Counted from the stretch's first letter, positions 4,063-32,000 are shown. The stretch is DNA of 32,000 bases from Bdellovibrionales bacterium (GCA_963692945.1 OY843585.1:1110001-1142000), one strand, 5' to 3'. Translations and numbers: made by a program. Notes: generated by a model from the sequence alone, not told the origin.

Positions 4063-7000
4063 TTAAGCTCTTGTATTTTGTGTGTTATCATCCTTTTTAG
4101 AATTGACACTGTCTAAAGAAGTTGATCCTCCAAAAAGTTGCACATTATCCTCTTCCTCTTCATCTTCATAAGCTAAAGGATATTGATGATAACCAGCATA
4201 ACCCGTTCCTGAAGGTATTAAACGACCCATAATAACATTTTCCTTTAATCCAACTAAATAATCGTTTTTAGATTGAACAGAAGCCTCAGTAAGTATTCTA
4301 GTTGTCTCTTGAAAGGAAGCCGCTGAAATCCAACTTTTTGTATTTAAAGATGTTTTTGTAATACCTAAAAGAAGAGGTTTAAAAACAGCCAACCGACCCC
4401 CTTCTCTAATGATCTTATTGTGTACATCCTCTAATTCACCTTTATCAACTTGCTCTCCGACAATATACGGAGTGTCTCCTGATTCTAAAATCTCTACTTT
4501 TCCTAACATCTGACGGACTATCAACTCAATGTGTTTATCGTTAATAGAAACCCCTTGCAGTCGGTAAACCTCTTGAACTTCATCAACAAGATAAGAGGCT
4601 AAAGCCTGATCTCCAGAAACATTTAAAATATCATGTGGATCACTAGGACCATCCATAAGAGATTCTCCCTTTTGAATGTACTCTCCCTCTCTAACAGCAA
4701 TGTATTTTCCTTTAGGAATCAAATACTCTTTTTGCTCTCCCTCTTTAGAAGTTACAATCACTCTTTGCTTACCTTTTAAATCTTTTCCAAAATTGATATA
4801 GCCATCAATTTCAGAAATAATAGAAGATTCTTTTGGTCTTCTCGCTTCAAAAAGTTCAGCCACACGAGGTAGTCCCCCTGTGATATCTTTTGTTTTTGTA
4901 CTTTCTTTATAAACTTTAGCAAGAGTATCCCCAGCATGTATCTCATCACCATCAGAAACCATTAACTGAGCTCCAATAGAAACAGAGTAAGCCACAGGAA
5001 CATCTCTTTCTGGAAAATTAATTGTATTCCCTTTAGAATCCACTATAGCAATCATAGCTTTTTGGTCTCCTGCTTTAGAATCTGTAAGAACTTTTGTTGT
5101 AAATCCTGTCACGGAATCAACTTGCTCAATGTAGTTCACGTCCTCTTCTATACCTTTAAATTTTACAAATCCAGAAGCATCAGAAACAATAGTGTTAGAG
5201 TAAGGATCCCATTCTGCAATGACATCTTCTTTTTTAACAGTATCGCCTTCTTTAACATTTAAAATAGCACCATAAACCAATTTAAAACTTTCTCTTTCCC
5301 GACCCGTGCTATCAAGGATAACAATATCACCACCTCTGTTCATTACTGTTAACTTTCCTTCTCTATTTTGAACAACATTTACATTTACAAATTTTATTTT
5401 TCCAGAGTAGTGAGCAACATGGACGGACTGTTCAACAGAACGAGATGCTGTTCCTCCTAAATGGAAAGTTCTCATCGTCAACTGAGTTCCAGGTTCTCCA
5501 ATAGATTGAGCTGCAATAATTCCAACCGCTTCACCAATATCTACTGTTCGGCCACGAGATAAATCCCGACCATAACATTTAACACAAATACCTTTCTTAG
5601 ACTGACAAGTTAGAGAAGATCTAATTTTTACTTTTGGAATAGCGAGGTTATCTATTTTTTTGACCATTTCTTCATCAATTTCTTCCCCAGCTTCACAAAT
5701 GATTTCATTAGAATTAAGATCTACAACTTCTTCATAAGCTGTTCTACCTAAAACTCTCTCCCCAAGAGCTTCAATCACTCCCCCACTTTCTATAAGAGGT
5801 TGCATCTCCATGTGTTTGTCCGTCCCACAATCTTGTTCAGTAACAATAACATCTTGAGAAACATCTACTAATTTACGAGTTAAATAACCTGAGTTGGCTG
5901 TTTTTAAAGCCGTATCAGCTAAACCTTTACGAGCTCCATGGGTAGAAATAAAATATTGTAAAACGGTTAATCCTTCTCTGAAATTCGCTGTAATAGGAGT
6001 TTCAATAATTTCTCCAGAAGGTTTTGCCATCAAACCACGCATACCAGCTAACTGACGAATTTGAGCTGTTGAGCTTCTTGCTCCTGAATCAGCCATAATA
6101 AAAATAGGATTAAAACTAGCCGCTTCAATTTTTTGATCATCAACAATAAAGGTTTCTTTTTCTAAATACTCCATCATTTCATCAGCCACTTTATCTGCAC
6201 AGTGAGTCCAAATATCAACAACTTTATTGTATCTTTCACCATCTGTAATTAAACCCTCATCATACTGTAAACGAATTTCATCAACTTCAGCACGAGATTC
6301 TTTTAGAAGTTCTTCTTTACGAGAAGGAATTTGTAAATCATTGATACTAATAGAGATACCTGCTTTTGTAGAATATTTAAATCCAGCGTTCATCAATTTA
6401 TCCGCTAAAACAACTGTCTTTTTTCCTCCACATAGACGAAAAGTTTTATCAATTAACTCGGCTAGAGAATTTTTATTCATCACACGATTGTAAAATGAAA
6501 ATGGAACTTCTTCAGGGACAATAGAACTTAAAAGAACTCGGCCAACAGAAGTTTTTTCTCTTTTTCCGAAAACACGACAAGTGATTTCTGCTTGAAGATC
6601 AACAGCACCTGATTCGTAAGCATAAATAACTTCTGGAATACTTCCAAAAGACTTTCCTGTTCCTTGAGCTCCAGGACGGATACGAGTCATCCAATACATT
6701 CCTAAAACAATATCTTGTGTAGGATTGATAACAGGTTGACCACTTGCAGGACTCAATATGTTATTTGTGGACATAATCAATGTTCTTGCTTCCGTTTGAG
6801 CCTCTATAGACAAAGGAACATGAACAGCCATCTGATCTCCATCAAAATCAGCATTGAAAGCTGTGCAAACAAGAGGATGCAACTGAATCGCTTTTCCTTC
6901 ATGTAAAACAGGTTCAAAAGCTTGAATACCTAATCTATGCAATGTAGGTGCTCTATTTAATAAGACAGGATGTTCTTTTACAATTTCAGAAAGAATATCC

Positions 7001-17174: not shown

Positions 17175-17576
17175 TTATAGACTTTGTTTTAAAAGCTGTT
17201 CTATTTTTGCTAGCCTTATTTTCATTTTTTTGCAGTATTTTTCAACTGCAAATAAACCTTTTCTAGCATGTGCCGTACTACCTGGAAAACGTTTGTCATT
17301 GGCGACTTTTATACTATGTTTCCAGAGACGTTTTCCTCTAATGCATCTTTCATTACTTACTGTTTTAAGATTTTTCAAATTTTGTTGCATCATCTGTATG
17401 TGAGTTCCCAATTTTTGCACTTGAGAGTTAAAAGTGATCACTAACTTTTCTCCTTCTATATCTGGTCCATGTAAACCAATACCTACACCTACATTACCTT
17501 CTGGTATTCTTCTGCTATTATTTTTAGCAAATGCAATACCACTTAAAAATGGTATTAAAATAATAAATAGTTTCAT
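17175..17576 (-). CDS. Small secreted hypothetical protein
   Basis: 133 aa with signal peptide MKLFIILIPFLSGIAFA and a basic helical C-terminus. A strong SD (AAAGGAGGAAGT) lies directly upstream of the ATG. No family recognised. Confidence 0.7.
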   Translation of the reverse strand: MKLFIILIPFLSGIAFAKNNSRRIPEGNVGVGIGLHGPDIEGEKLVITFNSQVQKLGTHIQMMQQNLKNLKTVSNERCIRGKRLWKHSIKVANDKRFPGSTAHARKGLFAVEKYCKKMKIRLAKIEQLLKQSL

Positions 17577-17618: not shown

Positions 17619-17627
17619 GGGGGGGGG
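17619..17627. repeat. G9 (C9 on the minus strand) homopolymer tract
   Basis: aatgggggggggtaga, 43-51 nt upstream of the ATG at 17576. The same 16-mer context occurs at 30777-30792. Confidence 0.9.
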
Positions 17628-17819: not shown

Positions 17820-19211
17820 TCAATATCTTCCTTTTTTATTTTTTTTAATAATCTCCAGAAAGTTTTTTTTATTTTTGGATACAATGGATTCCATTTCTTT
17901 TTTATTCCAAATATGATTGTAAGCTTTTTTATAAGAGTTCATTTTATCTTTGATTTCAAAATCATCTGAAATTACATTTATATTTACTGAATAACTTAAT
18001 TTATTAAATTCCATTTCAAATAATAAAGTCAGATCAAAATCTTCTTCACTTGGTTTATAATTTTTATACATAACTTTTAAAATTATTTTTTTATTTATAT
18101 AATCTTCAGAAAAAGTTTCTGTATTTACAAAATCTTCAAAAGAAGAGAAAATTTGTTGTATCTCATTTGGTGGAACTTCTGTTAAAATAGGATGCCCTTC
18201 TTCTATATATAACTTTATTTTTTTAGAACAAAAAACCGTATCAAAAGTGTCAAATTTCCTATAAAGAATATTAAAAAAAGGTTTAAAAAAATTATCAAAT
18301 AAAACTTCTTTTGTATTGATATCCAGTAAAGTAATGTTTTCTTGTTCCTCTCGTATAAATTCCTCAGCTTCTTTATCCACGTCTTCAGGCTCACTTATAT
18401 CTTCACCTTTTGCAGCTTTAATACCTATTTCTAGCCATTGAATTAAAACTTGACCTATATATATAGCCAAAGCATCTACACTTCCCGTATCAGTCTTGTT
18501 TAAAGCAATAAGATAGTTTTCTCTATCACTGCTTTTAATTATTAAGGGTGGGTAGCCAAGTTTTAACAATATATAATTTAATAAAACTCTAGCAATTCTA
18601 CCATTCCCATCATCAAATGGATGAATTAAAAGAAACTCATGATGTGATTTCGCTAGAAAAGAAGAAATTGAAAGAGTTTTTTGTTCAAGCTCTTTGTTAA
18701 CCCACTTCATCAATTCTTCCATTTTTGCAGGCACTTCTTCAGGTTCGGCAAATTTAAATATTTCTCCTGTACTGGTTTTTACATGATTAGGCTGACTTTT
18801 ATATTTGCCAGGAATAATTTCTTTTTGAACTTCTATTCCATCTGATGTTTGAGCTTTTTTAAAAAATGGTTCTTTTAAAATAATCTTATTAAAATCTCTA
18901 ATATCAGCCTCTGTTAATGGGTAAGTTTCAGTTTTAGCCAATTCTTGAATTTTTTTTATAACCACATCATGAGATTTCATCTCATTGTAATTTCTTTCTA
19001 AATGACCTCCTTCCATCCTTCCAAAAATAAGAAGAAGCTCTGTTTCTCCATAAGTTAAAGTATTACCTTCTATTTTATTTGAATGGTAATTCCAATCTAA
19101 CCTGATTTTTTTATCCAATATCTCTTGATATTCTGATTTTAAAGGCTGAAATTCTTTCCACTTTTTAAACAAATCTTCAATTTTCTTATTTATTTCTTTT
19201 AATTCTTTCAT
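17820..19211 (-). CDS. Fic family protein (AMPylase-type, class II with N-terminal inhibitory motif) plus uncharacterised C-terminal domain
   Basis: 463 aa with the canonical Fic motif HPFDDGNGRIAR (aa 197-208) and the inhibitory-helix motif S-x-x-x-E-G as SNKIEG (aa 44-49). About 190 C-terminal residues have no recognisable motif. Confidence 0.9.
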   Translation of the reverse strand: MKELKEINKKIEDLFKKWKEFQPLKSEYQEILDKKIRLDWNYHSNKIEGNTLTYGETELLLIFGRMEGGHLERNYNEMKSHDVVIKKIQELAKTETYPLTEADIRDFNKIILKEPFFKKAQTSDGIEVQKEIIPGKYKSQPNHVKTSTGEIFKFAEPEEVPAKMEELMKWVNKELEQKTLSISSFLAKSHHEFLLIHPFDDGNGRIARVLLNYILLKLGYPPLIIKSSDRENYLIALNKTDTGSVDALAIYIGQVLIQWLEIGIKAAKGEDISEPEDVDKEAEEFIREEQENITLLDINTKEVLFDNFFKPFFNILYRKFDTFDTVFCSKKIKLYIEEGHPILTEVPPNEIQQIFSSFEDFVNTETFSEDYINKKIILKVMYKNYKPSEEDFDLTLLFEMEFNKLSYSVNINVISDDFEIKDKMNSYKKAYNHIWNKKEMESIVSKNKKNFLEIIKKNKKGRY

Positions 19212-19333: not shown

Positions 19334-19394
19334 TTCTTCTCCTTGTTGCGATGAAAAGCTCGTGAAAATAAAAATTCACACACTAGAGTTTTGT
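19334..19394. repeat. Partial copy of the MITE-like element (one end)
   Basis: ctcgtgaaaataaaa...ctagagttttgt matches the reverse complement of the left end of the 22853-23024 element. The terminal CTAGAGTTTTGT (19383-19394) abuts the stop codon of the HEAT-like gene. Confidence 0.6.
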
Positions 19395-21691
19395 TATTGA
19401 AATAAAAAATATTTTTTATGGGTTTTATGTGAAAGATTACGCACTTCAATATTCGTATCTTTCATACCCTGTTCTAAAAGCAAAAGAGCTTCTTCTTTCA
19501 TATCCGCTTCTATCAATTCATACATTTGATGTATAACAAACTCACGGACAACTGTATTTTCATCTTTCATACCTTGTTTCAAGAAGAAAAAAGCCTCTTC
19601 TCTCATATCTGCGTTTATCAATTCATACGTTTTCTTAATAACAGCATACCGTACGTACCGATTTTTATCTTGCAGACCTTGTTTCAATAAGAAAAAAACC
19701 TCTCCCTTCATATCTGCACTTATCAATTCATAAGTTTGATATATAACGGCCTGACGTACATCTTTACTCTCATCTTCCAGACCTTGTTTCAATAAGAAGA
19801 AAACCTCTTCCCTCATATCTGCGTTTATCAATTCATAGGTTTGATACATAATGAGTTGACGAACACCCTCATCCTCATCTTGCAGACCTTGTTTTAATAA
19901 GAAAAAAACCTCTTCTTTCATATCTGCGTTTATCAATTCATCCATTTGATATATAACAGCATGACGTACAACTCTATTCTTATCTTGAAGACCTTGTTTT
20001 AATAATGAAAAAAAATCCTCTTTCATTCCCACTTTTATCAATTCATACACTTTCTGAATAACAGTCTGACGTACATAGACATTCTCATCTTGCAGACCTT
20101 GTTTTAAAAACGAAAGAGCCTCTTCTTTCATTCCCATTTTTATCAATCCATACGTTTGATATATAACGGCCTGACGTACATCTTTACTCTCATCTTCCAG
20201 ACCTTGTTTTAAAAACGAAAGAGCCTCTTCTTTCATTCCCATTTTTATCAATCCATACGTTTGATACATAACGGCCTGACGTATATCTTCATCCTCATCT
20301 TGCAGACTTTGTTTTAATAAGAAAAAAACCTCTTCTTTCATATCTGCGTTTATCAATTCATCGGCTTGATATATAACTTCTAAATTCACACTTTTATTCT
20401 CATCTTGCAGACCTTGTTTTAAAAAGGAAAAAGCCTCTTCTTTCATTCCTACTTTTATCAATTTACCCATCTGATACATAACAGCCTGACGTACATCTTC
20501 ACTCTCATCTTCCAGACCTTGTTTTAATAATGAAAGAGTTTCTTCTTTCATTCCTACTTTTATCAATTCATCGGCTTGATATATAACAACCTGACGTACA
20601 CCTTCATCCTCATCTTTCAAACCTTGTTTTAATAAGAAAAAAGATTCTTCTTTCATTCCCATTTTTATCAATTCAGATACTTTCTTAATAACAACCTGAC
20701 GAATATTTTCATTCTCATCTTTCAGACCTTGTTTTAAAAAGGAAAAAATCTTTTCTCTCGTTCCTGCTTCTATCAATCTATCCATCTGATATATAACAGC
20801 CTCACGTACACCCTCGTCCTTATCTTTCATTCCTTGTTCTAAAAACGAAAGAGCTTCTTCTTCCATTCCTACTTTTATCAATTCAGATGTTTTCTTAATA
20901 ACAGCCTGACGAATACTTTCATCCTCATCTTTCAGACCTTGTTTTAATAAGAAAAAAGATTCTTCTTTCATTCCTACTTCTATCAATTTATCCATTCTCT
21001 TAATAACAGCCTGACGTACATTTTTATTTTTATCTTTTAGACCTTGTTCTAAAAACGAAAGAGCCTCTTCTTTCATGTCTGCTTCTATCAATTTATCCGT
21101 TTGATACATAACAGCCTGACGTACATTTTTATTTTTATCTTTTAGACCTTGTTCTAAAAATAAAAGAGCTTCTTCTTTCATTCCTACTTCTATCAATTTA
21201 TCCGTTTGATGTATAACAGCTTGACGAACATCCTCGTCCTTATCTTTCATTCCTTGTTCTAAAAACGAAAAAGATTCTTCTTTCATGTCTGCTTCTATCA
21301 ATTCATCCGTTTGATACATAACAGCCTGACGTACCCCCTCGTCCTTATCTTTCATTCCTTGTTCTAAAAACGAAAAAGATTCTTCTTTCATGTCTGCTTC
21401 TATCAACTCATCCGTTTGATACATAACAGCCTGACGTACATATACATTCTCATCTTTCATTCCTTGTTTTAAAAGTGAAAGAGCTTTTTCTTTCCTATTT
21501 GTTTTTATCAATTCATCCGTTTTTTTAACAATAGCTAAATGTATATCTTCATGCTCGCTTTTCACACCTTGATTTAAATGAGGGTTTGTAGCATAAGATT
21601 CTACAGCATAAATTAAAAAACTTATAAGACAGGAGTAAGAAAGAATGAAACAAACTTTCAAAATAAAACTTTTAAAACCACTTAAAATCAT
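19394..21691 (-). CDS. Secreted or membrane-anchored protein of ~20 tandem 35-aa HEAT-like (PBS-lyase-type) repeats
   Basis: 765 aa with a hydrophobic N-terminus (FILKVCFILSYSCLISFLIYAVESYA). It then carries 20 units of consensus VRQAVMYQTDELIEADMKEEaFsFLkQGLKDedeg. The L-KD-D--VR-A signature is that of HEAT-like repeats. Confidence 0.85.
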   Translation of the reverse strand: MILSGFKSFILKVCFILSYSCLISFLIYAVESYATNPHLNQGVKSEHEDIHLAIVKKTDELIKTNRKEKALSLLKQGMKDENVYVRQAVMYQTDELIEADMKEESFSFLEQGMKDKDEGVRQAVMYQTDELIEADMKEESFSFLEQGMKDKDEDVRQAVIHQTDKLIEVGMKEEALLFLEQGLKDKNKNVRQAVMYQTDKLIEADMKEEALSFLEQGLKDKNKNVRQAVIKRMDKLIEVGMKEESFFLLKQGLKDEDESIRQAVIKKTSELIKVGMEEEALSFLEQGMKDKDEGVREAVIYQMDRLIEAGTREKIFSFLKQGLKDENENIRQVVIKKVSELIKMGMKEESFFLLKQGLKDEDEGVRQVVIYQADELIKVGMKEETLSLLKQGLEDESEDVRQAVMYQMGKLIKVGMKEEAFSFLKQGLQDENKSVNLEVIYQADELINADMKEEVFFLLKQSLQDEDEDIRQAVMYQTYGLIKMGMKEEALSFLKQGLEDESKDVRQAVIYQTYGLIKMGMKEEALSFLKQGLQDENVYVRQTVIQKVYELIKVGMKEDFFSLLKQGLQDKNRVVRHAVIYQMDELINADMKEEVFFLLKQGLQDEDEGVRQLIMYQTYELINADMREEVFFLLKQGLEDESKDVRQAVIYQTYELISADMKGEVFFLLKQGLQDKNRYVRYAVIKKTYELINADMREEAFFFLKQGMKDENTVVREFVIHQMYELIEADMKEEALLLLEQGMKDTNIEVRNLSHKTHKKYFLFQ
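19397..21538. repeat. Intragenic 105-bp tandem repeat array (~20 units)
   Basis: Exact 105-nt period; for example, gcttctatca recurs at 21291 and 21396. Adjacent units such as 21241-21345 and 21346-21450 are nearly identical at the DNA level. Confidence 0.92.
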
Positions 21692-28015: not shown

Positions 28016-28239
28016 ACAAAACTCTAGAAATACCCCTCTGCGAAAACCAGAGTTGCGAAAACCAGTAGTTTTTCTCTATGTTAAAACTTTCATTTTCACG
28101 AGATTTGAAGAACAAAACCCCTCATGCGAAAACCAGTAGTTTTTCTCTAGGAATATCCCTCCTTGTTTTCTGAACTTGAAGAGCGTCCCTTTTACGATGA
28201 AAGGTCAGAAAACAAGGAGGGGAAGAACTAGAGTTTTGT
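28016..28239 (+). mobile_element. MITE-like non-autonomous element (224 bp)
   Basis: Perfect 12-bp terminal inverted repeats ACAAAACTCTAG (28016-28027) and CTAGAGTTTTGT (28228-28239). Both ends are flanked by AGA (28013-15 and 28240-42). The interior has small-hairpin modules at 28054-28078 and 28124-28149 and a 17-bp-stem hairpin (28157-28173 / 28205-28221). The right terminus supplies the last codons and the stop of the 881-aa ORF. Confidence 0.7.
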
Positions 28240-30873
28240 AGATAATCTTTCAAGACGATCCACTCTTTTGATAAGTGAGTTTAGATTCTCTTTAAGAGAT
28301 GTATTTTCTTTTTTCAAAGAAGTGAGTTCTCTTTCTAGTTTTTTATTTGTAGATGCTAATTTCTTTTCTGTTTGAAGTTGTGTCTGTTTTAGTTTTGTGA
28401 TTTCTTTTGTGGTGGCTTTTACATCATCTGAAGTTTGTTTAAGTTTAATTTTTGTTTCTTCAATTTGACTTTGGTTCGCTCCCAACTCTTTTTTAAAAGT
28501 TAAAAACTCTGTTTGAAAAGTCTCTTTTAAATCAGATAGTGATTTTGTAAGAGCCGATACAGACTCCTTAAGAAAGTTTAGAGTTTTTGTTGTGGAGTTA
28601 TAAAACTCTTTAAAAGCTTTTATGATAACAGGAATAAGCCCTTGATAGTTCAAACTTAAAGTCTTTTTTGGATCTGAACCTTCAGACACTAACTCGGGAT
28701 ATTCTTTTTGAACCTCTTGAGCAATTAAACCTATCTGTTTTGTTTGAACTCTATGTTTGTCTTTCCAGTAAAAAGTTTTTGGGTTTAATTTTAAAAGAGA
28801 ATGGGTTTGATTTTTTAAATCCTTAATCTTGGTTTTGAGTCTTCGGTCTGATGGTGATAATGGTGCTGCTGGACTACCAAAAGAAGCAGAAGCCCCAGAG
28901 GTATTCAAGGTGAAATAATCTGTACTAGATGATGGTGATGATTTTTTAACCCTTAAATTGCCCTCTACAATTAAATCCCTTCTAATAGTGACATCATAAG
29001 CACTTAACATACCATTATCAATAGTGACATCTCTATTAATACTAGAACTTATCCCATTACTAACAGTGAAACGACCTTGGCCATATCCATTATTTTGATT
29101 ACGACCACCAATACGGAGTTCTCGATCTACTATTAAAGTTCCTCCATCTGATCCTCCACCTGTGTAGTTAACATTCCCGACTCTTAAATTACTGTGATTA
29201 ATCAGAATTTCTTTATGATTTTTGTCCATATTTCCCATGATTATATTTCCAATATTGAGCCTCTTACCACCAGAGTTAGGCTGCAAATTATTACCTATTA
29301 CAATATTATTACTTGTATTGTAAGATTTACCTGCGTGATCGCCTATATAGATATTATTACTTCCAGTTGTATTTCCCCATGAGCTACCATGTGTTCCTGT
29401 CTGCGTGCCTATAAAAATATTACTACTTCCTGTGGTGTTTCGTTTACCAGATTCATAACCTATAAAAACATTTCTACCAGAAGAGTAATTAGATTTTGTT
29501 CCTGCTTGAAAACCTACAAAAGTATTTTTAGATCCCATAAAAGTCCCATCTCCATATCCGGCTCCATGACCTATATAAGTATTACCACCATGACCACTCT
29601 GTCCACCTCCTCCTGCGTATGCACCTACATAGGTGTTGTTATGTCTATTAAGTTCAAGTTTACCAGCTTCAAAACCTATAAAAACATTATTAGACCCTTG
29701 ACGTAATCTGTGTCCTGCTTGAGATCCGATGATAGTGTTTTTGTGGTTTCCTGTTCCTAATGATGAAAAAGCACTAACGGTAGCATAACCAATGTAAGTA
29801 TTATTTTCTCCCGTGGTGTTTGTACCTGCTTGATAACCCACAAAAGTATTATTTGAATCTGATATATTTGCACGACCCGCTTTATAACCCACAAAAGTAT
29901 TCCCTGCCCCTGAACCTGTTGTTGATTTCCCCGCTTCAAAACCAAAAGCCGTGTGATGATTTACACTTACCTCTGTTGTATCTCCACAACCCACAAGACT
30001 TAACTCGCTAGGAGATTCTGTCACTTTATAACAATCTGGATCTCCACTACCTCCGCCTCCACCAACAACTACATCACCACAAACATCTTTTGCATAAGTT
30101 AAAGGGGTTGTATCTGCTATGATTAACTCTACCACTTCTTCCACCTTTGTTTTTCTGGTTGCATGAGTAGTAGCTGGTAAAGCATCTATCTGTGTCTGTA
30201 TATTTGTAGGAAGACCAGACTTCCCATCTGCTTTATCAATAATTTCTTCATAAAACAGAGAACAGCATTGAGAATCTTTCACTGAAATCTTAAAATCCCA
30301 ATCTGTTGGAGGGTTTGTTGGAGTAGTTCCTGTTCCTTTTAAGTGAATGATTTTTGGTCTTTCACTTGCTGGCGTGGTGGTTGCACACTCTGGCAACTCT
30401 GGGTCTGTTGTTGCTGTGCAATCTCTAGATACAAATTCAAAACCTGAAGGTTTAGTTTTGATATTATCATTTAAAACTTTCAAACATTTTTTATTATCAT
30501 CTGTATTTGTTGAATCATCTTCATTTGCAAATTTATTTAAAAGAGATTGAATCTGAATCACCTTCCAAAGCTCCGTGTTAGAATCTTTTATTTTTTTTTG
30601 AGAAGTAGATTGTTGCATGATAGATGTCCCAACCCCTAAAATAACGATAGCCCCTATTGCCGATGCAATAACAACACTAACAAGAGCAGAACCTTTTTGA
30701 TTTAAATAAGAAAGCTTATTGTTTTTTAAAAGAAAGGAAAGCTTGTGAAAAAAAAGAAATTTACACTTTAAAAGTAAATGGGGGGGGGTAGAAAGGTTTT
30801 TTAGAAAATAAAAAAGCAAATTTTTAAAATAAAAAAAGAAACTTCTACCTCTAGATTTAAAGGATTTTTTCAT
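28228..30873 (-). CDS. Chimeric fibre protein: pilin/PilX_N-like N-terminal helix, Gly-rich tail-fibre repeats, peptidase S74 intramolecular chaperone domain, coiled-coil tail
   Basis: 881 aa. Residues 58-86 are NQKG/SALVSVVIASAIGAIVILGVGTSIM. Residues ~306-548 carry repeated NTFVGYxAG-type units. Residues 675-~765 are SDRRLKTKIKDL...IGLIAQEVQKEYPELV...LNYQGLIPVIIKAF, which is S74-like. Residues ~766-881 are heptad coiled coil. The start is uncertain, because the first 57 residues are low-complexity F/L/K-rich and there is no SD. Confidence 0.8.
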   Translation of the reverse strand: MKKSFKSRGRSFFFYFKNLLFYFLKNLSTPPHLLLKCKFLFFHKLSFLLKNNKLSYLNQKGSALVSVVIASAIGAIVILGVGTSIMQQSTSQKKIKDSNTELWKVIQIQSLLNKFANEDDSTNTDDNKKCLKVLNDNIKTKPSGFEFVSRDCTATTDPELPECATTTPASERPKIIHLKGTGTTPTNPPTDWDFKISVKDSQCCSLFYEEIIDKADGKSGLPTNIQTQIDALPATTHATRKTKVEEVVELIIADTTPLTYAKDVCGDVVVGGGGGSGDPDCYKVTESPSELSLVGCGDTTEVSVNHHTAFGFEAGKSTTGSGAGNTFVGYKAGRANISDSNNTFVGYQAGTNTTGENNTYIGYATVSAFSSLGTGNHKNTIIGSQAGHRLRQGSNNVFIGFEAGKLELNRHNNTYVGAYAGGGGQSGHGGNTYIGHGAGYGDGTFMGSKNTFVGFQAGTKSNYSSGRNVFIGYESGKRNTTGSSNIFIGTQTGTHGSSWGNTTGSNNIYIGDHAGKSYNTSNNIVIGNNLQPNSGGKRLNIGNIIMGNMDKNHKEILINHSNLRVGNVNYTGGGSDGGTLIVDRELRIGGRNQNNGYGQGRFTVSNGISSSINRDVTIDNGMLSAYDVTIRRDLIVEGNLRVKKSSPSSSTDYFTLNTSGASASFGSPAAPLSPSDRRLKTKIKDLKNQTHSLLKLNPKTFYWKDKHRVQTKQIGLIAQEVQKEYPELVSEGSDPKKTLSLNYQGLIPVIIKAFKEFYNSTTKTLNFLKESVSALTKSLSDLKETFQTEFLTFKKELGANQSQIEETKIKLKQTSDDVKATTKEITKLKQTQLQTEKKLASTNKKLERELTSLKKENTSLKENLNSLIKRVDRLERLSTKL
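30780..30788. repeat. G9 (C9 on the coding strand) homopolymer tract inside the 5' end of the fibre ORF
   Basis: aatgggggggggtaga encodes S-T-P-P-H (TCT ACC CCC CCC CAT) at codons 28-32 of the 881-aa ORF. Confidence 0.9.
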
Positions 30874-30879
30874 AGATAA

Positions 30880-30908
30880 ATTATGAAGAAGGTTTAAAAA
30901 AATATCAA
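30880..30908 (-). promoter_or_regulatory. Candidate sigma-70 promoter giving a leaderless fibre-gene mRNA
   Basis: On the minus strand: TTGATA (complement of 30903-30908), a 17-nt spacer, then CATAAT (complement of 30880-30885). The A of the ATG (30873) lies 7 nt after the -10 hexamer, and no SD is present. Confidence 0.3.
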
Positions 30909-30983: not shown

Positions 30984-31442
30984 TTAACTACAAACTTGAG
31001 CTGCACAGGTTCCTGTCATACTCGTTCCTTTTTTTGAATTATCTGTTAACTTTCCTGTGCTATCAATACAGAATTTTAAGGGTTCGGCCTGACTTGTAGA
31101 ACTGAAACCTAAGGTTGTGTAGTCACCACCAGTTCCTACCATGTATAAACACCATTTTGTAGAATCAGAAGCATTAAAAGAAAATGTGGGCTTAGCAAAT
31201 TTACTTTTATCTTCAAAAGTCATTCTCTCCCATGCTGTATCCACAGGATTTGAATGTTCAAAATTACGAGACATTTCATATTTTTGATAAAACTCTAGAA
31301 ACATATCCTTTACCATTCCTGACTTGGCACTGTTTTTTATATTGTTATAACTGACTATTGCGACACTAGAGAGAACCCCTAGGATTGAAACAACCACAAG
31401 CAACTCTATCAAACTAAAACCTTTTCTATTTTTTTCACACAT
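30984..31442 (-). CDS. Type IV pilin (prepilin-type N-terminal cleavage/methylation domain)
   Basis: The class III signal MCEKNRKG/FSLIELLVVVSILGVL has Phe+1 and Glu+5. C-terminal Cys residues are present (FCIDS...GTCAAQVCS). The track ORF begins 11 codons earlier (31475) and overlaps the upstream pilin. The ATG at 31442 gives a normal 8-aa leader. Confidence 0.88.
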   Translation of the reverse strand: MCEKNRKGFSLIELLVVVSILGVLSSVAIVSYNNIKNSAKSGMVKDMFLEFYQKYEMSRNFEHSNPVDTAWERMTFEDKSKFAKPTFSFNASDSTKWCLYMVGTGGDYTTLGFSSTSQAEPLKFCIDSTGKLTDNSKKGTSMTGTCAAQVCS

Positions 31443-31459
31443 AAAACACTTCCAAGCTT

Positions 31460-31945
31460 TTACTGACATCCACATGAAGAACTACTACAAGTCCCTTTGA
31501 TTGTAGGAGAGGTTTTTTCACTATTGTCCGTAAATTTATTTTCGGAATCCATACAAAAATTTATTGCCTCTTTAGTATTACCGTTATAACCAAATTTTTG
31601 ATACTCTTTGTGGGCATTAGTTCCAGTACCAGTGTTTGCAGTTAGGGCCTGACACCATTTTTTAGGATGAGCAGAACAATTTTTAACAATAGCAGATTTA
31701 GTAAAATATTTTTTATCGTTAGATCGGAGACTATCCCATGCTGTCTGCCAAGGATTTGTTTCTCCTAGATTTTGATCCACAAAGATAGATTGATGATAAG
31801 ATTTAAATAGCAGTTGAAGTGTATTTACCTTTCCGTCTCTCACATATTCTTGAAAGGAACTAATACTAAATGCCCCTAAGATTCCTATAATTACAACCAC
31901 TGTAAGTAGTTCTATTAAACTAAAACCTTTTATATCTTTATACAC
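31460..31945 (-). CDS. Type IV pilin (prepilin-type N-terminal cleavage/methylation domain)
   Basis: Leader MYKDIKG/FSLIELLTVVVIIGILG, with a GTG start directly after an in-frame TAA. It is a paralogue of the downstream pilin (shared NP..TAW, KWC, FC.DS..K.TDNS.K..GTC) and has a Cys-rich C-terminus GTCSSSSCGCQ. Confidence 0.88.
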   Translation of the reverse strand: MYKDIKGFSLIELLTVVVIIGILGAFSISSFQEYVRDGKVNTLQLLFKSYHQSIFVDQNLGETNPWQTAWDSLRSNDKKYFTKSAIVKNCSAHPKKWCQALTANTGTGTNAHKEYQKFGYNGNTKEAINFCMDSENKFTDNSEKTSPTIKGTCSSSSCGCQ

Positions 31946-32000
31946 TCTTTAATGATTAGATAAACTTTAGGAATTATCAAATTCTTTTAGTAAAATTTTG

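Follow-up and report, generated by a model that had tools for sequence, protein, structure and literature searches.

A predicted pilin-anchored protein of a Bdellovibrionota lineage carries a phage-type fiber and an S74 chaperone domain

The stretch of DNA analyzed here (the window) comprises 32,000 nucleotides (nt) of a genome recorded as Bdellovibrionales bacterium (GCA_963692945.1, OY843585.1:1110001-1142000). It carries a gene on its minus strand whose product of 881 amino acids (aa), the window protein, joins a pilin-like N terminus to a phage-type fiber shaft and an intramolecular chaperone domain of the Peptidase_S74 family (Table 1). The S74 and fiber identity of the C-terminal half is essentially certain, and the pilin ancestry of the anchor, which becomes visible only through relatives, is well supported by sequence comparison. 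With confidence a little above even, we favor the reading that this is a minor pilin of the modular kind, bearing a trimeric phage-type fiber adhesin on a type IV filament and matured by S74 autocleavage, which would expose a variable tip. Trimer formation, autocleavage, and the adhesin role are thereby inferred, together with processing by the prepilin peptidase PilD and display at the pilus tip; the latter two rest on the architecture, on an absent Glu at position +5 (as in tip-most pseudopilins), and on the precedent of trimeric tips.

Both sequence and predicted fold identify the S74 domain. Pfam Peptidase_S74 (PF13884) matched aa 675 to 729 (E = 7.9e-15; 55.3 bits against a cutoff of 22), the segment SDRRLKTKIKDL begins at aa 675, and the S-D-x-x-x-K motif reads S675-D-R-R-L-K680. 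A preliminary description, made from the DNA sequence alone, had proposed an S74 domain with S675 and K680 as its dyad. This proposal was upheld, as the Pfam match lies above threshold and both residues were invariant in all 75 aligned homologs. The sole sequence match in the Protein Data Bank (PDB) was the L-shaped tail fiber of phage T5 with its chaperone (6f45; SSDRRIKKDIK in the phage and PSDRRLKTKIK here). We modeled aa 300 to 881 as a monomer with AlphaFold2 (AF2), using 75 sequences (mean predicted local distance difference test score [pLDDT], 72.8). In this model, aa 674 to 744 of the S74 core had pLDDT values of 88 to 96, and the domain showed the intramolecular chaperone (ICA) fold of a β-rich core followed by a C-terminal helix. 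Foldseek comparison of aa ~674 to 790 gave the ICA domain of MyRF (7dc3) as the best match (probability, 1.00; TMt, 0.66; root mean square deviation, 1.4 Å), with endosialidase (3gw6) and the GA-1 protein (3gud) also matching.

In the AF2 model, the helix of this domain began within the chaperone domain, at aa ~743, and ran without interruption to aa 880; the hydrophobic periodicity of aa 743 to 881 peaked at 3.55 residues with a power that none of 500 shuffles reached. It had been suggested earlier that the S74 domain is followed by a coiled coil and is therefore not C-terminal. The coiled coil is indeed predicted, but because the helix starts within the chaperone domain in the model, it is better regarded as the chaperone module's own C-terminal helix, lengthened, than as a separate domain. 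The fragment from the Ser to the C terminus is 207 aa long here, 147 to 208 aa in close relatives, and 100 to 130 aa in most of the best 120 homologs (from a search that gave 3116 matches at E ≤ 1e-5, the best 120 being those surveyed for their N termini). In the window protein, the S74 domain almost certainly serves the folding and maturation of a trimeric adhesin. A clade with canonical prepilin N termini (P0061, P0100, and P0110, from loci L001 and L006) starts its chaperone with SSRxFKNxI in place of SDxxxK, with the Ser and Lys staying invariant; no S74 match is given for these three proteins in precomputed Pfam annotation.

Ahead of the chaperone, all eleven Gly/Asn-rich repeat units listed in the preliminary description were found at aa 325 to 529, and a twelfth, NTIIGSQAG, lies at aa 379; the repeat period is 16 to 22 residues. 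That these repeats are typical of phage tail fibers was confirmed by profile and fold comparisons. Tail-fiber families of PHROGs matched aa ~300 to 785 with E values down to 6e-22, and the viral models in BFVD gave 134 fold matches at E ≤ 0.001, mostly tail fibers and ICA-domain proteins. The AF2 model showed one short strand per repeat up to aa ~540 (repeat pLDDT, 60 to 92), and aa ~542 to 671 were poorly predicted. Comparison with the three closest relatives revealed a conserved anchor and chaperone and a divergent tip region (Table 1), which is the pattern expected of a diversifying receptor-binding tip. One family member, P0005 (L002 4397-7822, 1141 aa), has three consecutive KTLVGCG(S/T)T-plus-repeat units, at aa 248, 545, and ~755, and is a predicted triplication of the fiber module on one pilin anchor.

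At the N-terminal end, aa 58 to 86 read NQKG followed by SALVSVVIASAIGAIVILGVGTSIM, a Gly that precedes a 25-residue hydrophobic stretch. The Gly-preceded hydrophobic helix of the pilin kind, with no Glu at +5, is thus present as first described, and its pilin origin was strengthened by the relatives. About 20 of the best 120 homologs had a prepilin-like N terminus, many of them with canonical KGFSLIE or KGFSLVE, and sister clades have F/E or F/G at +1/+5. An architecture of Gly at −1, a hydrophobic α1N, a module of 196 to 239 aa, TAFGFNAG, and repeats was common to 20/20 of these proteins. Their module ends in (T/S)L(V/I/F)GCG(T/G)T, with 196 to 239 aa between G(−1) and LVGCG, and residues equivalent to G61, C130, C281, G295, C296, S675, and K680 are invariant in 20/20. 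N_methyl matched 15/20 of the family members (E ≤ 0.1; best, 6.4e-6), and S74 matched 18/20. When the first 42 residues of the window clade were aligned by hhalign with the canonical-prepilin sister clade, the match had 97.2% probability (E = 2.8e-11). In the PDB, a profile of the family N-module matched type IV pilins and nothing else, with α1 as the aligned part; Geobacter PilA-N was the best match (E = 7.8e-6), and Thermus PilA5, Myxococcus PilA, MshA, TcpA, and PilE1 were others.

The region behind the hydrophobic helix had been taken for a Cys-containing spacer. The Cys residues were found (8 in aa 87 to 300, all invariant among paralogs); the notion of a mere spacer was not borne out, as this is a conserved module of ~235 aa. 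When aa 55 to 300 were run exhaustively with HMMER against 1.84 billion representatives, only six relatives were found, and a profile of the N-module alignment run against a collection of 5.8 billion returned only the Logan fragment P0244, a result that is uninformative on family size. To judge by its sequence relatives, the N-module after α1 is lineage specific. In two of the six relatives (P0245 and P0246), the same N-module is fused to Cys-rich, nonfiber C termini, and a 465-aa protein encoded beside a fiber gene (L008 10820-12217) likewise bears it on nonfiber cargo; across these three proteins, the C termini are Cys rich or Pro rich. The module therefore acts as a carrier of varied cargo, and it seems to be one used generally in the lineage.

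Under the modular-pilin reading, the protein would be inserted into the inner membrane with its basic leader in the cytoplasm, and disulfides would form in the periplasmic part. Three C-terminal chaperone/coiled-coil segments would then nucleate a trimer of the shaft. The S675/K680 dyad would cut before S675, releasing the 207-aa chaperone fragment and exposing aa ~549 to 674 as the binding tip. Prepilin peptidase would remove the leader, and three α1N helices could seed or cap a pilus made of the neighboring major pilins, which would place the fiber at the pilus tip; the absent Glu5 fits a tip-most subunit. Paralogs with different tips may confer different prey or host specificities, and a context of prey or host recognition is plausible because the genome belongs to the Bdellovibrionota.

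Several observations weigh against this reading. The class III arrangement of a basic leader ending in Gly at −1 is present (NQKG61), but its 61-aa length is atypical, and to our knowledge it lies far beyond the leader lengths of described prepilins. Position +1 is Ser62 and position +5 is Ser66, in place of Phe/Met and Glu, and Pfam N_methyl (PF07963) scored the window protein below threshold (E = 0.096; 12.8 bits against a cutoff of 21.2). Searches with NCBIfam (TIGR02532-type) models gave no match to it. The AF2 model of the N-module, built from 7 sequences, had a mean pLDDT of 47, too low for the lollipop fold of pilins (an α1 of ~50 residues and a globular β-sheet head) to be recognized; it predicted a helix to aa ~113 followed by mixed α/β structure. 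Neither pilus machinery nor a prepilin peptidase gene was visible in the 32-kb window. Pilin genes stood directly upstream of the fiber gene in none of six other loci (L001, L002, L003, L006, L007, and L008), although L006 has a pilin gene 2.5 kb away on the other strand; the synteny whose survey had been suggested is not conserved, and a conserved pilin-fiber operon was rejected on this ground. Lastly, an independent Logan contig (L005, run ERR14375725), whose aligned 5′ part is identical to the window except for A7 in place of an A6 tract, would encounter a TAA 10 codons before G61, leaving the anchor without a start codon.

Many of these points also favor the leading alternative, which we find possible but doubtful: that the pilin-derived N terminus is now only an uncleaved (or signal-peptidase-processed) membrane anchor, and that the protein is a pilus-independent surface fiber that takes another route. 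The missing Glu5, Ser at +1, subthreshold N_methyl score, long basic leader, and unconserved synteny all fit this. So does the example of the mosaic adhesive trimer (MAT) fibers of Bdellovibrio bacteriovorus, all of which have a Sec signal peptide and a conserved, apparently unrelated β-rich N-domain of ~130 aa, and for which no surface anchor is known (Caulton et al. 2024, PMC10769870). On the other side, G(−1) is invariant in 20/20 members, and sister clades with the same architecture retain the full GFSLIE motif. Further, the 25-residue hydrophobic stretch with its predicted continuation to aa ~113 resembles pilin α1 and not a Sec h-region, and an anchor in the inner membrane alone would be unable to place a fiber on the surface of a diderm cell.

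A missing Glu5 is typical of GspK/PilX-type tip pseudopilins. It would thus also suit a subunit or substrate of some other type IV filament system (a pseudopilus like that of the type II secretion system [T2SS] or an MSH/Tad/Com-type filament), with the pilin adjacency being coincidental. We regard this as improbable. It draws on the presence of that adjacency in only 1/7 loci and on a promoter-like site between the fiber gene and the pilin genes, found in a scan whose number of consensus sites equaled the shuffle expectation. However, no T2SS or other filament genes occur in the window, and the two co-oriented genes directly upstream resemble major pilins and end 110 nt before the fiber ATG, with no terminator-like site seen in that gap. 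Both are true, N_methyl-positive prepilin genes on the minus strand (Table 1), as the preliminary description had it. A genuine (pro)phage tail-fiber gene, or a pseudogene in decay whose 5′ extension is open by chance, is very improbable: the strong sequence and fold matches to phage tail fibers, the A6/A7 discrepancy, and a C9 tract in the 5′ part speak for it, but the gene is flanked by core genes (eno, ftsB-like, polA, rpoBC, and ribosomal protein genes) with no phage genes among them, the open reading frame (ORF) of 2646 nt is intact, the anchor is well conserved in paralogs, the Cys residues and G(−1) are conserved across the family, and the N terminus of the leader recurs in orthologs.

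The modular-pilin reading places the window protein beside several known systems. Closest in organism are the MATs: B. bacteriovorus has 21 such fibers, 13 of them ending in an S74 domain with SDxxxK, and for one of these, Bd3182, self-cleavage has been shown at S782 (PMC10769870). The S74 MATs and the window protein come from the same phylum and share a phage-like, trimeric-type fiber with an SDxxxK chaperone end; both groups consist of many paralogs with conserved ends and variable tips. In its ending, the window protein agrees with the S74 subgroup of MATs. It differs in its prepilin-like leader, α1N, and ~235-aa Cys-rich module (the N-domains being set apart by their descriptions), and its predicted released tail is 207 aa long, versus ~140 aa for Bd3182. 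The authors of the MAT study mention a possible interplay with type IV pili (PMC10769870).

From the pilin side, a survey of modular pilins lists IPR012902-IPR030392 (N_methyl plus S74) among its 15 most frequent architectures, reads the S74 part as "peptidase activity," and places modular pilins probably at the tip (Raynaud et al. 2021, PMC8179133). Like the modular pilins PilB and PilC of Streptococcus sanguinis, the window protein has an N-terminal pilin module that carries a grafted functional module, and its extra modules, fiber and S74, make it a modular pilin whose pilin motif is recognizable only via homologs. Unlike the surveyed proteins, it has a degenerate class III motif (no Glu5, Ser at +1, and a 61-aa leader), and the survey lists its proteins without describing a fiber or putting the S74 reading to a test. 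The earlier view that the combination was not known as described holds in part: N_methyl-S74 was listed in 2021, S74-ended fibers are characterized in B. bacteriovorus (PMC10769870), and our full-text literature searches found no paper characterizing a pilin-anchored S74 fiber. We conclude that the fiber protein is a variant of the modular pilins and the MAT/S74 fibers rather than a new category.

Trimeric tips have a precedent among minor pilins. As summarized in the modular-pilin survey, CofB forms a trimer, and a β-rich C-terminal homotrimer of CofB/TcpB has been proposed at the tip of the type IVb pilus (PMC8179133). These large trimeric tip minor pilins would have the same geometry as that proposed for the window protein, a comparison made from the literature; unlike it, they have no S74 domain and no tail-fiber repeats, and no sequence similarity was found. 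Among phage fibers and spikes, T5 pb1 (6f45), K1F endosialidase (3gw6), the GA-1 neck appendage (3gud), and T4-like gp37 variants have the same SDxxxK dyad and ICA fold, and in them, as here, the shaft precedes the chaperone, so that the distal tip is the C-terminal end of the mature protein. They attach by an N-terminal virion-binding domain, whereas the window protein has a pilin-type anchor, a chromosomal gene, paralogs, and a longer coiled coil. That MyRF was the best structural match illustrates that ICA domains also occur in nonviral, membrane-anchored proteins; MyRF, however, is a eukaryotic transcription factor, and its cleavage frees the N-terminal part from the membrane. PilC/PilY1 of Neisseria have the role proposed here, that of a pilus-tip adhesin, but their fold is a β-propeller, their sequences are unrelated, and they do not belong to the pilins.

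Type IV pili are needed for prey invasion by Bdellovibrio-like organisms, and no element is known that lends the pilus its specificity. We tentatively suggest, as a possibility that we would not rate highly, that this lineage shows interchangeable S74-matured receptor-binding fibers of the phage type on the tips of retractile type IV pili, perhaps switched on and off by homopolymer tracts. If true, this would supply the long-sought element of specific prey or host recognition on the pilus and would tie pili physically to MAT-like fibers. A family with the fiber covalently fused to a pilin anchor would make for a testable model, in which a filament that retracts ends in a phage-type receptor-binding tip and paralogy diversifies this tip. 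The S74 assignment also corrects a database reading, in which N_methyl-S74 "modular pilins" have been taken for peptidases (PMC8179133). Because its class III motif is degenerate, InterPro-type screens would miss the window protein; degenerate motifs (no Glu5 and long leaders) and gene calls that start past the anchor, as in P0001, hide such proteins from motif surveys.

Table 1. Features of the window protein, its gene, and the adjoining genes, in window coordinates. Identities are those of each region of the window protein to its three closest relatives.
Feature	Coordinates	Strand	Basis or remark	Identity
Whole gene, modular pilin-like fiber protein (predicted), 881 aa	28228..30873	minus	ORF list; stop codon 28228-30	
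Long basic leader, aa 1-61, with 12 Lys/Arg, no Asp or Glu, and K60-G61 at its end	30691..30873	minus	Open frame, recurring N terminus, invariant G61	
C9 homopolymer in leader-coding region (codes T-P-P-P)	30780..30788	minus	Candidate slipped-strand switch	
A6 tract	30722..30727	minus	A7 in independent Logan contig L005 (62-68)	
Hydrophobic α1N-like segment, aa 62-86, Ser at +1 and +5	30616..30690	minus	hhalign against sister clade	84-88% (P0002 and P0003 only)
N-module, aa 87-299	29977..30615	minus	Amphipathic α1 continuation, 8 conserved Cys, LVGCG end (aa 292-297)	52-72%
Fiber shaft, aa 300-548	29230..29976	minus	12 strict N-x-[FYI]-[VI]-G-x-x-[AST]-G units (aa 325-531), with degenerate units on their flanks	42-46% (repeats)
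Variable distal region, aa 549-674; would be fiber tip after cleavage	28852..29229	minus	Low conservation, low model confidence	16-34% (<50% alignable)
ICA/Peptidase S74 core, aa 675-765	28579..28851	minus	Pfam, AF2, Foldseek	56-96% (S74)
S675 codon, predicted nucleophile and cleavage site	28849..28851	minus	Invariant 75/75; aligns with T5 pb1 catalytic Ser	
K680 codon, predicted general base of Ser-Lys dyad	28834..28836	minus	Invariant in 75/75 aligned homologs	
Single long heptad-periodic helix, aa 743-881	28231..28647	minus	C-terminal part of predicted released fragment	52-90% (coiled coil)
Promoter-like TTGATA-17-CATAAT	30880..30908	minus	Ends 6 nt before fiber ATG; consensus scan only	
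Prepilin gene 2, 152 aa from ATG 31442, MCEKNRKG/FSLIELL	30984..31442 (ORF 30984-31475)	minus	N_methyl E = 1.1e-8; product on record	
Prepilin gene 1, 161 aa, MYKDIKG/FSLIELL	31460..31945	minus	N_methyl E = 2.8e-6; exact product on record	

The host genome was placed by its elongation factor G (EF-G), whose best named matches were "Bdellovibrionales bacterium" (78% identity), Oligoflexia (68%), and B. bacteriovorus (55%), with many of the EF-G relatives on contigs of 1.2 to 2.5 Mb. This similarity points to a small (~1.56 Mb), low-GC lineage of the Bdellovibrionota. Scans of the contigs of species-representative genomes with the single protein and with an alignment gave only an unrelated Flavobacteriaceae S74 match, so that the lineage is either unrepresented there or was missed by the patterns. 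The genome carries at least 3 paralogs, with P0001 and P0002 on the same contig as the window; a related 1.76-Mb genome likewise has at least 3 (P0061, P0100, and P0110), and on other contigs fiber genes occur in tandem or as nearby pairs. The recorded start of P0001, the closest paralog, is a Met equivalent to M87, which omits the leader and anchor; the 5′ part was either overlooked in gene calling or lost from this copy.

The start of the fiber gene was accepted at ATG 30873, with a 61-aa leader, because no start codon lies close before the anchor, the alternative frames are closed, the leader motif recurs, and the length lies within the range of the family. Specifically, no in-frame ATG, GTG, or TTG occurs between codon 19 and G61, and a start in another frame was rejected since the other two frames are full of stops. 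At the composition of the leader, 60 open codons would arise by chance with a probability of ~0.007. The N-terminal MKKSFKSR recurs as MKKAYKSR in P0245 and as MKKTYKSR in the DNA of L003, and called leaders across the family span 13 to 77 aa. An entry identical to the 881-aa product with this start is on record (NCBI/ENA) for a contig of 1,561,448 bp, which also bears the enolase, polA, and first pilin genes of the window.

In Neisseria pilC, a homopolymer tract in the region coding for the signal peptide gives phase variation, and the C9 tract in the leader-coding region of the fiber gene is analogous. At 32% GC, ~0.004 G/C runs of ≥9 are expected in the window. A second C9 with similar flanks (tctaC9att, 17619-17627) is part of a promoter-like spacer; an ORF for a small secreted protein (17175-17576, minus strand) follows 43 nt downstream. 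In L008, tracts of C27 (7794-7820) and C19 (14587-14605) lie ~180 nt upstream of both fiber paralogs. Upstream of P0003, at L003 ~5210-5300, the called gene does not share the frame of the conserved start ATGAAAAAAACCTATAAATCTAGAGAGAGAG (MKKTYKSRE...), which is off by one AG unit; were the (AG)5 repeat there an (AG)4, the product would read MKKTYKSRESPLHLRNLF..., matching the P0245 leader. The L003 contig has a coverage of only 2.75x, and an assembly error is possible. Such homopolymer and AG tracts could be slipped-strand (phase-variation) switches or long-read homopolymer errors, and the A7 of L005 is accordingly either an OFF variant or a homopolymer error.

The L005 contig begins exactly at the C9 tract. 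It reads the window from 30788 to 29863 on the minus strand and then from 29663 to 29878 on the plus strand (L005 917-1143), yielding the chimeric 264-aa P0244. A programmed DNA inversion in the repeat region, suggested by the change to the opposite strand after aa 337, was rejected because the junction site is passed through unrearranged. The structure is a fold-back with only ~12 nt of imperfect microhomology and most likely stems from a chimeric read or an assembly path.

The window as a whole is core chromosome of ~32% GC, with fusA, rpsG/L, rpoC/B, rplL/J/A/K, a σ54 activator, genes for Fic and HEAT proteins, polA, an ftsB-like gene, and eno. The first pilin gene, which has a GTG start, is preceded by the same promoter geometry as the fiber gene (31952-31980, minus strand), TTGATA-17-xATxAT being common to the two; both matches end 6 to 7 nt before the start codon and, as results of a consensus scan only, would imply leaderless transcripts. 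Fic, HEAT-repeat, and ankyrin-repeat proteins recur in these 1.5- to 1.8-Mb genomes (window 17820-19211 and 19394-21691; L006 13067-13987; L008 5227-7278), which is a hint of a life tied to a host, possibly a eukaryotic one, and not of classical free-living predation. Upstream of both fiber genes examined in the related 1.76-Mb genome lie a tandem array of a 24-nt repeat, called as an ORF of YIVTSLHR repeats, and a shared element of ~300 nt. In both cases the next gene overlaps the stop codon of the fiber gene, and its product, 361 or 425 aa long, is secreted and very rich in Cys (L001 9027-10004 and 12565-13650; L006 6157-8008 and 10598-11875).

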